A stretch of 64,000 bases of DNA from an uncultured Chloroflexia bacterium (GCA_963751345.1 CAVVUS010000018.1:256001-320000); one strand, 5' to 3'; positions 11,665-33,784 are shown, numbered from the stretch's first letter. The notes: generated by a model not told the origin, from the letters alone. Program-made: numbers and translations.

Positions 11665-11750
11665 ATGCTAGCATCAAAGTGGAGTGTCAGGTGGTGGAGA
11701 TGGTTGGTGCTGGTGCCGACTTACGTTTGCTGCGTTGGACCTGCGTTTGG
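11665..11750 (-). promoter_or_regulatory. Putative activator-dependent promoter: TGnTAGCAT -10 plus phased CCAAC-like repeats
   Basis: -10 at 11670-11665; plus-strand GTTGG/GTTTG units start at 11703, 11725, 11734 and 11745. Confidence 0.5.
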
Positions 11751-11754
11751 GAAG

Positions 11755-12174
11755 CTAATACTCGGGAGGCAATTTTCGGTGACGTATTCTCTCGCTGCGG
11801 CGCCGCTTGTTTTCGAGCCGACGTTCTCGTGCCCCCCTTGGCGTGTGCGTTGCGCGGCGAAGCTTGGGCTCATGCGCAGCTTGTCGGATCATCGCTTTCA
11901 GACGCCGGACTGCCTCGTTGCGGTTGCGACTCTGCGAGCGATACTCGCTGGCGTCGATCACCAGCACTCCTTCCTGCGTCATCCGGTTCCCCGCCAACTC
12001 GATCAGCCTCTGACGCACCCCTGCGGGCAGGGAGAGGCTGTTGGCCACGTCGAAACGTAGTTGTACGGCTGTGGCTGACTTGTTGACGTGCTGTCCGCCA
12101 GGTCCGGATGCCCGGATGAAACTGAAATTCAACTCGGACTCATCGATTGAGATCTGTTCGGTGACCTCGATCAC
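11755..12174 (-). CDS. arfB: Alternative ribosome rescue peptidyl-tRNA hydrolase ArfB
   Basis: RASGPGGQHVNK (GGQ), RSQSRNR and a basic C-terminal tail. Confidence 0.93.
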   Translation of the reverse strand: MIEVTEQISIDESELNFSFIRASGPGGQHVNKSATAVQLRFDVANSLSLPAGVRQRLIELAGNRMTQEGVLVIDASEYRSQSRNRNEAVRRLKAMIRQAAHEPKLRRATHTPRGARERRLENKRRRSERIRHRKLPPEY

Positions 12175-14247
12175 AAGTCAACCCCTGGCGCGTGCTCTTG
12201 GAGAAAATCGATGAATGCCGCCTCGTCCATCACGGGGATCTCATCATCCCGAGCCTCGTCGAGTTTTGTACCAGCGCCGGGACCGGCGACCACGAAGTCG
12301 GTCTGCCCACTCACGCTGGTGGTCGCACGCCCCCCGAGCCGTTCGACCAGGCGCCGCACCTCGTCCCTCGTCCAATGATCCAGGCTTCCGGTGAAGACGA
12401 AGGTGAGTCCCTCCAGCGGTCGGTCGCCTGCCTGAACGTCGGGATTCTCAAGCCTCAGCCCCGCCTCGCGAATCGCCGCGATCATCGCCAAGTTGCGATC
12501 TTCGGAGAAGAAGGAGACGACGTCACGCGCGACCTCGGGACCGCTCTCTTCAATCGAGAGGAGCTTCTCGTCGTCGACGTCCATCAGATCGTCGAGCGTC
12601 TCGAAGTGCTGGGCCAAGACGCGGGCGAGGTGCTCGCCGACCTGGGGGATGCCTATAGCATAGAGGAAGCGGGCCAAGGTGGATTGCCTGCTGGCCTCGA
12701 TCTCGTCGATAAGATTCTGGGCTGAGGTCTCGGCGAACCCATCCAGCGGGACCAGGTCTTCCATAGTGAGGTGGTACAGATCCGATACATGCTTGACGAG
12801 ACCTGCGTCGACGAACTGTGTCGCGCGCTGCTTGCCCAGACCGTCGATGTCCATCGCATTCCGCGAGGCATAGTGGGTAAGCCGTTCGCGAATCTGCGCC
12901 GGGCAGTTGATGTTGGGGCAGCGCGTCATCTTCTTATCATCGCTCGTCACGACTTCGGCGCCGCAGGCCGGGCACCGATCCGGCATGCGGAATACACTTT
13001 CGGAACCATCGCGGGCGTCGTCTATCGGCTTGACGACCTGGGGTATGACGTCCCCCGCGCGCTCGACCAGGACCTCATCACCGACGCGAATGTCCTTGCG
13101 ATCGATCTCGCTCTGATTGTGTAGCGATGCCCGGGCCACCTCTACGCCGCCGACCTGCACCGGGTCGAGAAGTGCGATTGGTGTGAGTTTCCCCGTGCGC
13201 CCAACCTGGATGGCGATGTCTGTGAGAGTCGTGGTCGCGCGCCGCGGCTGGAACTTATAAGCGAGTGCCCACCGGGGATCCCTTGATCAGCAGGCCCAGC
13301 CGGTCGCGCTCGACCAGTCGATCGACCTTGTAGACTACGCCGTCGATCTCGTAAGGAAGCTCGTCGCGTAGCTCCGCCATCCGCTGATGGTACTCGAGCA
13401 GGGCACCGAGGTCATCGCAGCGCTCGCTATGATCGAGGTTGGTCCGCAGGCCCCAAGTCGGCAGCGTGGTCAGCATTTCCCACTGGGTCTCAAAAGAGCT
13501 GCCCTCGACCTCGTCGGCAGCGTAGAAAAAGACCGAGAGCGGGCGCTCTGCGGTGACGCTAGGGTTGAGCTGCCTGAGTGACCCCGCCGCTGCATTTCTG
13601 GGGTTGGCGAAGGGCTCAGCTCCCTCGTCCAGTCGCTTGCGGTTGAGGTCGTTGAAAGCATGCTTCGGCATGTAGACCTCACCGCGGACGACGAGCCGCC
13701 CGGGCACCTCGACGTCGCGCCGGGTCGTCAGGTTGAGTGGGATGGCGCCGATCGTCCGTGCGTTGGCAGTAATATCCTCGCCGGTCTCACCATCGCCGCG
13801 GGTCGCCGCCAGGGCAAGAGTTCCGTTCTCGTAGACGAGCTCGATCGCGATGCCATCGTACTTTGGCTCAGCCACATAACCCATACCATCGCCGTCGATC
13901 TCCCGCCTGCACGCTTGGTCGAAGCTTCGCACGTCGTCCGCGTCGTAGACGGCCTTGAGACTGAGCATCGGTGTAGCGTGATCGACGAGGCCGAGTTCTT
14001 CGCGTGGCTCTCCTCCGACGTGCTGAGTCGGCGAGTCGTCGCTCTGAAGCGAGGGATACTCGTCCTCCAGTGTTACCAACTGCTCCACCATGCGGTCGTA
14101 CTCCGCATCCGAGATGACGGGATCGTCCAGCACATAGTAGCGATAGTTGTGGTAGCGGATGGCGTCGCGCAGGGACTCGACTGCCCTCTCAGCCTCTTCG
14201 TGTGAGGTGATGTCGTCGAGTGAGATATCGAGTTTGTGGTTGTTCAT
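12171..14247 (-). CDS. ligA: NAD-dependent DNA ligase; one apparent +1 indel near 13289
   Basis: YYVLDDP, EPKYDG adenylation motif, [18 protein letters not shown], zinc finger and BRCT. Removing one base restores [16 protein letters not shown]. Confidence 0.92.
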
Positions 14248-14261
14248 CGTTTCTGTAGTCT

Positions 14262-32456: not shown

Positions 32457-32495
32457 CGGTTACGCCCTCCTTCACATCACGAACGAACCTTAGTT

Positions 32496-33626
32496 CTAAG
32501 CGTTCTCGGCGCTGGTTTCCTCAAGCCTCAGCGAGATCCGCTGCTGCAGCGGATCCACATACAGCACTTGCACCTTGACGTCGGCACTTGGTGTCAAGTC
32601 TGTCAGTGTCTGTTCGCCTCCCGGCATTTCTGACACGTGGACAAGCCCTTCCACCCCTTGCCCAACATTCACGAATGCGCCGAAGTCCGTCACATGGGTG
32701 ACGGTGCCATCGATGACATCTCCTCGATGCATCTCCTCTGTGACTTGTGCCCACGGATCGGGCAGCAGACGCTTTCGACTAAGCGCGATGCGTTCCCTCT
32801 CCCGATCCACGTCGAGGACATAGACCTCAATGGTATCGCCAACGTTGAGGACGTCGCGCGGATGGTCCACGTGGTCCCAGGATATCTCGGAGATATGGAG
32901 CAGTCCGTCGATTCCCCCCAGGTCAATGAAGGCGCCAAAATCGACGAGGTTGCTGACGACACCTGTGCGAATGGCTCCCTCGTGGAGTTCCTGGAGCAGT
33001 TCTTGGCGCCGCTGCTGGGCTGCCGCTCTCTCGGACAGGATGAGGCGCCGGCGTCTCGGTTCGACCTCAATGACTGTGACGGTGACGACTTTTCCGATGA
33101 GATCCTTCTTGAGATCTGCCCGCTGTTCGTGCCGTGTGCCGCGGGGAATCGAGGTCAGGTGGGAGTTGGGTATGAAGCCCTGCAATCGACCGAAGGATGC
33201 TAGAACACCACCGCGATTGGTGTCGATGACTTCGACATTGATCGTCTCCTGGCTCTCCATCAGCTCCTCGGCATCGATCCACTGCTGATGCTCCAGACCT
33301 TGTTTGAGCGAGACAAGAATGGCACTGCGGTTGAATGGGATACTGACCACTCTGACCGGGATCTTTTCGCCTACCCGTAGGTTCTGTACGTAGCTTTCGT
33401 CGACTTCTGCGAGATCCTGTTCTTGGACGAGGCCATCTCGTTTGCCAGCCACGGTTACCAGGATGTCGTGCTCTCCCATCGAGAGAATCGTGGCTTCATA
33501 GACATCGCCCCTCCGGGCACGCTTGGCCCCATATCCGCCTTCGACGAGAAGCTGCCACCACCGCGGGCTCTTCTGTTCTGTCTCTTGCTCAACACCTTGC
33601 TCCGCTACCTTCTGTTCAACCGACAT
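32496..33626 (-). CDS. rpsA: 30S ribosomal protein bS1-like protein (four S1 domains), possibly a paralogue
   Basis: GFIPNSHL, FGAFIDLGGIDGLLHISEISW, ERIALSRK and FGAFVNVGQGVEGLVHVSE; AGGAGG RBS. Confidence 0.85.
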   Translation of the reverse strand: MSVEQKVAEQGVEQETEQKSPRWWQLLVEGGYGAKRARRGDVYEATILSMGEHDILVTVAGKRDGLVQEQDLAEVDESYVQNLRVGEKIPVRVVSIPFNRSAILVSLKQGLEHQQWIDAEELMESQETINVEVIDTNRGGVLASFGRLQGFIPNSHLTSIPRGTRHEQRADLKKDLIGKVVTVTVIEVEPRRRRLILSERAAAQQRRQELLQELHEGAIRTGVVSNLVDFGAFIDLGGIDGLLHISEISWDHVDHPRDVLNVGDTIEVYVLDVDRERERIALSRKRLLPDPWAQVTEEMHRGDVIDGTVTHVTDFGAFVNVGQGVEGLVHVSEMPGGEQTLTDLTPSADVKVQVLYVDPLQQRISLRLEETSAENA

Positions 33627-33708
33627 CTACTGCAATTGCCTCCTAGTTATGATTTTAGGGATCCATGCGGGTCCCAGGGGATCTATAGAATCCCTTTTAC
33701 ATGTTACC

Positions 33709-33784
33709 ATATTAGACCCGGGGGAGGGGACGACCTCCGTTGGCAGACGTCCGGGCGACGTTAGGTGAGTTGGATTTCCGTTGG
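33709..33784 (-). promoter_or_regulatory. Putative activator-dependent promoter of the S1 gene: TAATAT -10 plus five phased CCAAC-like repeats
   Basis: -10 at 33714-33709; plus-strand GTTGG 33739, GTCCG 33749, GTTAG 33760, GTTGG 33769 and GTTGG 33780. Confidence 0.55.

Follow-up and report, generated by a model that had tools for sequence, protein, structure and literature searches.

We analyzed a 64,000-nucleotide (nt) stretch of DNA from an uncultured Chloroflexia bacterium (GCA_963751345.1 CAVVUS010000018.1:256001-320000, or G000:C18:256001-320000 in our own numbering; hereafter, the window), whose genome (G000) comprises 5.4 Mb in 49 contigs with 61% G+C. Four promoters in the window, upstream of genes for a rhodanese sulfurtransferase, a paralog of ribosomal protein L35, a BNR-repeat protein and a paralog of ribosomal protein S1, carry a row of CCAAC-like pentamers spaced about one helical turn apart. 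This repeat row is real and evolutionarily conserved. Judged from sequence comparisons, the four promoters are most likely the operators of one conserved two-component regulon of the Anaerolineae (Chloroflexota). We put at roughly 0.6 the probability that the phosphorylated form of an OmpR-family response regulator, encoded at 33880-34602 (minus strand), binds the pentamers head-to-tail and recruits RNA polymerase, a reading favored because PhoB and OmpR activate transcription in a manner that fits direct repeats one turn apart over a missing -35 box.

Phased CCAAC repeats in four promoters

The S1 paralog promoter (33701-33784, minus strand), supported by an alignment of ten orthologs and by a profile match, has exact CCAAC copies at 33784-33780, 33773-33769 and 33743-33739 with degenerate phased units between them, and an extended -10 box, TGGTAACAT, at 33709-33701 that is conserved in all ten orthologous promoters. 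In the L35 paralog promoter (20213-20285, minus strand), three exact copies lie at offsets 0, 9 and 30 (20285-20281, 20276-20272 and 20255-20251), and the -10 box, TAAGAT at 20218-20213, is found 32 nt past the proximal copy and lacks a TGn extension. The rhodanese promoter (11665-11752, minus strand), which also has a profile match and is nearly identical in the related genome G002, holds exact copies at 11738-11734 and 11707-11703, CAAAC-like units between and upstream of them, and the extended -10 box TGCTAGCAT at 11673-11665. The promoter of the BNR operon lies on the other strand (22853-22939, plus strand), with exact copies at 22853, 22864 and 22896, in-phase GCAAC and TCACC units between these, and the extended -10 box TGCTAGACT at 22931-22939. 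A short inverted repeat, CCGGCAC...GTGCCGG, occupies 22903-22930 (plus strand) between its proximal CCAAC and the -10 box, and the ortholog in the genome G016 has a different inverted repeat, ACACAC...GTGTGT, at the same place.

The repeats all point in one orientation, and at each of the four sites the exact copies read CCAAC on the sense strand of the downstream gene, as had been noticed before. Their offsets fall at 9-11, 20-22, 30-32 and 41-43 nt, and the proximal CCAAC, which occupies roughly -49 to -45, precedes the -10 hexamer by 32, 32, 33 and 32 nt in the rhodanese, L35, BNR and S1 promoters, respectively. The original prediction had given near-constant distances to the -10 box; these hold at three sites within the counting convention, but its S1 box, TAATAT, lay 8 nt too far upstream, and we re-placed the S1 -10 box 8 nt downstream because the TGGTAACAT box is conserved across the ten orthologs. 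The shared 11-mer TCCAACTCACC is real, ending 48-49 nt ahead of the -10 box in both the L35 and S1 promoters, and it has six copies in the genome, of which three are intergenic.

A TGn extended -10 box is present in three of the four promoters, and a consensus scan confirmed that none of the four has a TTGACA-type -35 box; the sites were therefore rejected as canonical sigma-70 promoters, the -10 box being present and the -35 box absent. Where a -35 box would be, 11 nt past the proximal CCAAC, there is a further conserved unit of the form TCryC. Each operator is a series of five or six direct (C/T)CAAC-like pentamers, all facing the same side of the helix and offset by approximately 0, 11, 20-22, 31-32 and 42-43. 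An identity as UP elements was also rejected, as the arrays are rich in C and A, keep their CCAAC letters and have spacers rich in G+C; A/T tracts do occur in the cassettes of other families.

A fifth site, proposed earlier for the PRC-barrel and sigma factor genes (~30150-30216), did not survive. Its CCAAC and CAAAC words belong to radical-SAM coding sequence (Cys-Pro-Thr-Cys-Gln-Thr), no CCAAC stands 32-33 nt from the -10 box, and the site is neither kept in G016 nor matched by the profile.

The expectation that the repeats would be conserved in orthologous promoters was borne out for S1, L35 and BNR, where repeats are kept and flanks diverge. Relatives were found via the regulator protein and are metagenome-assembled genomes titled Anaerolineae, Anaerolineales, Thermoflexales or Chloroflexia. 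Nine S1 paralog loci of the genus keep the repeats while their flanks drift. Aligning the ten S1 promoters gives, for positions shared by nine or more of them, CCAAC..AA..CCAACT...C.AAC.......G.AC......C.AAC..AG.TC..C...TGGTA...T, which amounts to six phased units (offsets 0, 11, 20, 31-32, 42 and 52-53) and then the extended -10 box. The three CCAAC copies of the L35 promoter are kept in G002, G016 and G012, and thus in 4 of the 10 L35 paralog loci including that of G000; the other six have different promoters. The three CCAAC copies of the BNR promoter and their spacing are kept in G002 and G016 despite diverged flanks, with the BNR protein of G016 being just 64% identical. The whole gene island containing these promoters is syntenic in G002 and largely so in G016, and the phased direct-repeat layout is likewise found in the cassettes of other families.

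Ordinary promoters in G000 have the form TTGACA-N17-TAnnnT, which dominates its upstream regions, and because of this we regard the CCAAC-repeat promoters as a special class and not a general promoter type; CCAAC as a general promoter element of the organism was rejected, the word showing neither enrichment nor strand bias. The class is small, with ~11-22 members in 5.4 Mb, four of them within 22 kb (Poisson P ~3e-6). The proposed regulon would therefore extend beyond this block, with members spread over the whole genome.

The comparison with background gave a divided answer to the original prediction: spacing and phasing exceed the controls, and the frequency of the bare word does not. The rule CCAAC-N31-33-TAnnnT plus at least one in-phase upstream CCAAC has 11 non-coding matches genome-wide, versus 3, 3 and 4 at three control spacings and 5 off-phase, and it also matches seven times in coding sequence. 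For CCAAC-N29-TGnTAnnnT there are 8 intergenic matches versus a mean of 1.45 over twenty other spacings (N20-40), a count that, like all those called intergenic here, depends on home-made gene calls that missed the L35 paralog. Sense CCAAC pairs upstream of genes have distances peaking at 11, 21 and 29-32 nt (the histogram was restricted to intergenic DNA, the all-DNA version being swamped by codon periodicity), and 57 of 108 sense pairs are in 10.5-bp phase (binomial P = 4e-4) versus 43 of 109 antisense pairs (P = 0.36).

A profile hidden Markov model trained on 29 cassettes from other families only was then run over G000. It returned 22 sites at E < 1; 20 of these lie between genes, and 9 of the 11 rule-based matches are among the 22. 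Three of the four window promoters were recovered (genome-wide E = 4e-4 for L35, 0.17 for S1 and 0.41 for rhodanese), and these are the top three matches within the window (E = 4.8e-6, 0.002 and 0.0048, respectively), where nothing else stands out. In the housekeeping region of the window, with a ribosomal L10 leader (RF00557) and four tRNA genes (45066-45247 and 47759-48116, minus strand), there was no profile match beyond 3.9 bits inside a tRNA.

The OmpR-family regulator and its link to the repeats

The regulator (33880-34602, minus strand) has Response_reg and Trans_reg_C domains (Pfam E = 6e-26 and 1e-20), the receiver residues DD, D55, T and K are visible in its sequence, and the recognition-helix stretch ARNIIKWYVHRLR is conserved among 39 orthologs. 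It was rejected as an ortholog of RpaB, MtrA, YycF, OmpR or PhoB, as all scores are far below the NCBIfam cut-offs (148 bits against 330, 132 against 300, 116 against 340, 115 against 331 and 109 against 296, respectively). RpaB, MtrA and YycF are nonetheless its top NCBIfam matches, and the best match in the Protein Data Bank is an RpaA chain (9dvt, E = 7e-27). The promoter of the regulator gene itself is canonical, TTGCGC-N17-TATACT.

Evidence for a link between this regulator and the repeats comes from adjacency and from co-occurrence. All nine genus S1 paralog loci with repeats have a regulator ortholog (70-98% identity) directly upstream, versus none of six more distant S1 paralog loci without repeats (within 1.5 kb); one further locus is truncated by the end of its contig. 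A scan of species-representative genomes with the regulator protein yielded 11 loci at 60-98% identity, all of which have at least two sense CCAAC within 300 nt downstream (at least three in 9 of 11), and the repeats are still there at the two loci where the next gene is not the S1 paralog. In other families, a cluster of at least three CCAAC within 50 nt directly follows the regulator gene at 13 of 28 loci and is divergently upstream of it at 2 of 28, and several more loci have two exact units plus variants.

For co-occurrence, the sample for pattern and regulator searches was fixed at 401 Anaerolineae genomes, of which 26 are regulator-positive, i.e., have an ortholog at E ≤ 1e-75. The pattern CCAAC-N6-CCAAC-N24-28-CCAAC was detected in 17 of the 26 regulator-positive genomes (35 matches) versus 61 of the 375 negative ones (72 matches, approximately the control rate), with a Fisher P of 1.3e-7 that overstates the association because the relatives are not independent. 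A second pattern, CCAAC-N6-CCAAC-N4-CCAAC, matched in 27 of the 401 genomes, and its reversed control gave 13 matches. Five genomes picked for promoter-like pattern matches before the regulator search each have exactly one regulator ortholog, at 61-67% identity, against the base rate of 26 in 401. The proposal that the local OmpR-type regulator runs the regulon is supported by this adjacency and co-occurrence. Four loci (L108-L111, in G266, G288, G310 and G217, all of one family) share a near-identical stretch of ~50 nt with CCAACTCTAACCCAACTCCTCCAAC, and none of these genomes has a regulator ortholog; this stretch is probably an unrelated repeated element.

The kinase put forward as the regulator's partner is a cytoplasmic PAS-GAF-PAS histidine kinase (20293-22728, minus strand; Pfam). 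In the window, 11 kb separates the kinase gene from the regulator gene, both within the same conserved island, and at 23 of 27 regulator loci outside G000 the next gene upstream, on the same strand, encodes a kinase homolog (38-55% identity over 200-500 amino acids, aa). Of these 23 homologs, 19 find their best G000 match in the window kinase, which is the probable partner, but the claim must be shared with a paralog at C23:225493, as discussed below. In G000:C23:221500-231500 (L190), a large MEDS-PAS-PAS-GAF-PAS kinase paralogous to the window kinase is seemingly broken into consecutive open reading frames (ORFs).

OmpR/PhoB winged-helix regulators bind tandem direct repeats one helical turn apart. 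By analogy, the PAS-GAF-PAS kinase would phosphorylate the regulator, dimers or oligomers of which would bind the repeats head-to-tail, and the bound regulator would recruit RNA polymerase to promoters without a -35 box, as PhoB does at pho boxes. The targets in the window would be the S1 and L35 paralogs, a SigA-like sigma factor, LonB, HtrA and M50 proteases, a universal stress protein (Usp), malate/lactate dehydrogenase and the rhodanese genes. From the positions of the sites, we infer activation rather than repression.

Beyond the caveats already given on gene calls and on the independence of relatives, several results weigh against the repeat pattern itself or against its assignment to this regulator and kinase. 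Bare CCAAC is found upstream of genes 712 times on the sense and 734 times on the antisense strand (0.94x the genome frequency). CCAAC triplets within 50 nt show a mild genome-wide excess (54 versus ~31 expected), and those within 60 nt number 8 sense and 4 antisense across 3255 upstream regions. In the profile search the BNR promoter scores just 2.8 bits, and the S1 and rhodanese promoters are weak genome-wide. There is no CCAAC in the regulator's own promoter, and at 13 of the 28 other-family loci the regulator gene has no exact cluster of CCAAC next to it. The C23 paralog, a rival partner for the regulator, is the best match for 4 of the 23 regulator-adjacent kinases, with higher catalytic-core identity than the window kinase. 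A salt-marsh metatranscriptome run (X1) contained 5% of the sampled words, and its short contigs, at 90-99% identity, fell on the LonB, malate/lactate dehydrogenase/sigma factor and regulator genes and gave no transcript starts and no strand information.

Among the alternatives, a real operator with another binder is the one that holds up best, though we consider it unlikely. The binder could be the SigA-like sigma factor with an adaptor, a single-domain receiver, a LuxR-type protein or an unlinked factor, with the OmpR-type regulator merely a member or neighbor of the regulon. The island travels as a block and co-occurs with the motif as a whole, so that another of its genes could be the binder and co-occurrence alone cannot separate them; a single-domain receiver and a LuxR-type regulator are repeatedly found downstream of CCAAC cassettes, and 9 of the 26 regulator-positive genomes have no exact pattern match. 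In other families, however, the sigma factor and most island genes are not beside the regulator, whereas the array still is, either directly past the regulator gene or on its divergent upstream side, and the OmpR-type regulator is the sole DNA-binding protein consistently adjacent to the array. One-turn direct repeats are also the known OmpR/PhoB mode, whereas LuxR/NarL proteins usually bind inverted repeats.

If the OmpR-type regulator is the binder, it could still mainly repress, or be dual, with the promoters firing via the extended -10 box alone. The TGn boxes of three window promoters are of a kind able to work without a -35 box, many other-family cassettes have a TTG-containing GGTTnGG at the -35 position, and arrays covering -90 to -35 could occlude or loop DNA. 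Yet the window promoters have no -35-like element, the L35 paralog promoter has no TGn either, and sites centered upstream of and over the -35 region, not over the -10 or +1, are typical of activation by PhoB and OmpR, which makes this a distinctly unlikely account.

It is more improbable again that no protein operates at the arrays and that they are a structural or mobile cassette, whether DNA-bending phased A-tract-like units or a spreading promoter-terminator module. The genomes G271, G333 and G098 do have 5-7 very similar 90-nt cassettes with phased AAATT/TTTTT tracts, and 11 of the 29 other-family cassettes have a strong hairpin and T-run (z < -2). In the genus of G000, by contrast, flanks are G+C-rich and diverged with the CCAAC letters kept, hairpins at the window promoters are not significant (z of -0.15, 0.01 and -0.22, and -2.0 for BNR), and the sense orientation and fixed -10 distance speak for a factor bound at the promoter. 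Random clustering of a frequent pentamer in intergenic DNA rich in C and A, with which the unenriched, unbiased word and the 8-to-4 triplet count would agree, is very nearly ruled out by the spacing peak, the phasing, the conservation across genus and families, the independent profile recovery and the local P of ~3e-6.

In other families (L113, L115, L117, L122, L124, L127, L167 and others) the proximal CCAAC forms the left arm of a strong hairpin (CAGTCCCAAC...GTTGGGACTG), followed by a T-run ending at the extended -10 box, i.e., a terminator fused to the next promoter. The proximal CCAAC as a mere terminator-hairpin arm holds for those 11 of 29 cassettes and was rejected for the window promoters.

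Genes of the island and the predicted regulon

The gene stretch of interest spans 9.3-36.7 kb of the window. The first gene downstream of the 33701-33784 promoter encodes an accessory ribosomal protein S1 paralog with four S1 domains (376 aa; 32496-33626, minus strand) that scores below the rpsA cut-offs. S1 of this type was found in 16 of 31 related genomes, and its orthologs are 62-83% identical across 12 further genomes of the genus and 50-53% identical in three genomes from another family. All 31 genomes searched contain a different S1 (~40% identity) whose promoter is canonical, TTGACT...TACAAT, and we therefore regard the window S1 as the accessory paralog. The L35 paralog (66 aa; 19954-20154, minus strand) reaches 39.7 bits against a TIGR00001 cut-off of 51.2 and was found in 10 of the genus's 22 genomes, with the canonical infC-rpmI copy located at G000:C18:7432-7596. 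Housekeeping bS1 and bL35 identities were thus rejected on the basis of sub-cut-off scores, second copies and patchy presence in the genus, and the plain names rpmI and S1 used in the original prediction do not apply to these extra paralogs.

The leader of the S1 paralog (33627-33700, minus strand) is conserved and structured-looking, with GGGATyC...GATCCC...GGGAyCC...GGATCCC TAAAATC before the Shine-Dalgarno sequence (orthologs L002-L013). It is also kept in loci without the CCAAC array, may be autoregulatory, and matched no Rfam family. Between the regulator gene and the S1 promoter lies a terminator-like hairpin with a 15-pair stem and a T-rich tail (33817-33851, minus strand), which is kept in G002. 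An aldehyde:ferredoxin oxidoreductase gene is divergent from the regulator gene.

Downstream of the S1 paralog, and co-directional with it, are genes for an M50-CBS peptidase, an AmmeMemoRadiSam radical SAM protein, a PRC-barrel protein, an RpoD/SigA-family sigma factor (315 aa), a malate/lactate dehydrogenase and a zinc-ribbon ORF (27440-32456, minus strand). The gaps are 39-109 nt, the gene order is kept in G002, and no canonical promoter was found between these genes, which probably form one transcription unit. The BNR-repeat protein, a LonB-like protease and a tandem Usp (22966-27382, plus strand) are encoded divergently from the kinase gene. The L35 paralog is followed by genes for an HtrA-type protease and PolX (16821-19784, minus strand), which may be co-transcribed with it, and the rhodanese promoter precedes genes for a rhodanese sulfurtransferase and an MBL-fold/rhodanese protein (9337-11652, minus strand). 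From the co-directional gene strings, with their gaps of 39-109 nt, transcription of most of the 25-kb island would start at the four promoters.

Just upstream of the rhodanese promoter, and so adjoining one of the operons, is a gene for a 139-aa RF-1-domain protein (11755-12174, minus strand) resembling the ArfB/ICT1 rescue factors, the third translation-related gene of the island. It is neighbored by an NAD-dependent DNA ligase split into two ORFs (12171-13160 and 13255-14247, minus strand) with a 94-nt gap, one part with the adenylation/Ia domains and the other with OB/Zn/HhH/BRCT. The stretch also holds parts of an ABC transporter. Queries with the ligase, the ABC transporter and orf217 found no match in G002 between PolX and the RF-1-domain gene, and the ligase/ABC segment may have been inserted in G000.

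The targets predicted elsewhere in G000 are a PNPOx-like protein with PAS proteins, phosphoketolase with acetate kinase, a LuxR-type response regulator, OsmC with an aldo-keto reductase, PrsW, a pyridine-nucleotide disulfide oxidoreductase, SPFH and PA14 proteins, FtsH followed by a PRC-barrel protein, YflT, a single-domain receiver with an HPP protein, and a ferredoxin. In other families, where the choice of target ORFs was crude, the genes that follow cassettes encode FtsH, PA14, a single-domain receiver, a LuxR-type protein, YtxH, glucan phosphorylase and an FAD-linked oxidase. That FtsH, PA14, the receiver and the LuxR-type regulator recur from family to family is why we consider the regulon conserved, and by its content it looks like a stress or energy-limitation program. 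More speculatively, and as a possibility that we would not favor, the kinase and regulator could respond to a redox or energy signal by remodeling translation and proteolysis through alternative S1 and L35, a second SigA-like sigma factor and Lon, FtsH, HtrA and M50 proteases, using a modular cassette of five or six CCAAC units that in some lineages is fused to a terminator and present in 5-7 copies.

Two other repeats were seen in G000. Outside the window, AACGT recurs every 8 bp in 111 strand-wise clusters, 91 of them intergenic, versus ~6 expected (e.g., C14:126767, C30:30643, C35:10393, C37:170912 and C47:6969). These are often perfect 26-bp palindromes such as GCACGTTTGAACGTTCAAACGTGC, located between or just upstream of genes. 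The AACGT arrays are a striking and probably separate repeat family. None occurs in the window and the period differs, but a few AACGT/ACGT arrays end in CCAACG at the same -10 distance. AGAAT forms 52 clusters of at least three within 50 nt, versus 0.9 expected.

Significance and relation to known systems

Anaerolineae are abundant in sediments, digesters and soils, and almost all are uncultured. The analysis offers a concrete operator, a candidate regulator-kinase pair and ~20 predicted targets that can be tested without culturing, and putative conditionally controlled S1 and L35 paralogs together with a second primary-like sigma factor bear on the low-activity states of slow-growing anaerobes. 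The mechanism, an OmpR/PhoB-type direct-repeat operator, is textbook; the regulon, the operator and its gene content are new. A literature search returned no paper combining CCAAC, direct repeats and a response regulator and none relevant on CCAAC with OmpR, and the titles and abstract openings it covered held nothing on Anaerolineae regulons or operators or on L35 paralogs. In the portion of PMC10433416 consulted, CCAAC is found in primers only.

The system is most like PhoB and OmpR of E. coli in pairing a receiver with a Trans_reg_C domain and in its one-turn direct repeats arrayed over an absent -35 box, and the OmpR sites F1-F3 similarly place several dimer sites in a row. It differs in its (C/T)CAAC unit, of which as many as six span about -95 to -35, in having a regulator that is orthologous to neither, and in its kinase, a cytoplasmic PAS-GAF-PAS protein and not a membrane sensor. 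By sequence, the nearest named regulators are RpaB of cyanobacteria (HLR1 sites) and MtrA of actinobacteria, both of which bind direct repeats and control broad stress and growth regulons, but the scores are below cut-off, the motifs are different and the recognition helix ARNIIKWYVHRLR is unusual.

The boxes of actinobacterial GlnR (gTnAc-n6-GaAAc) resemble the arrays in their AAC-ending pentamers, 6-nt spacers, 11-bp period and OmpR-family binder, whereas GlnR is an atypical orphan acting on nitrogen genes, and the gene content here differs. With the mycobacterial DosR/DevR dormancy regulon, a functional analogy, the predicted regulon shares a GAF/PAS kinase and a clustering of Usp and fermentative or redox enzymes around the regulator; DosR, however, is a NarL/LuxR-type protein on a palindrome, while here an OmpR-type protein would act on direct repeats. 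Finally, extra ribosomal proteins under a dedicated stress regulator recall the zinc-free paralogs controlled by Zur, although the proteins here are S1 and L35 and not the zinc-ribbon set, and their control would run through two-component repeats and not Zur boxes.

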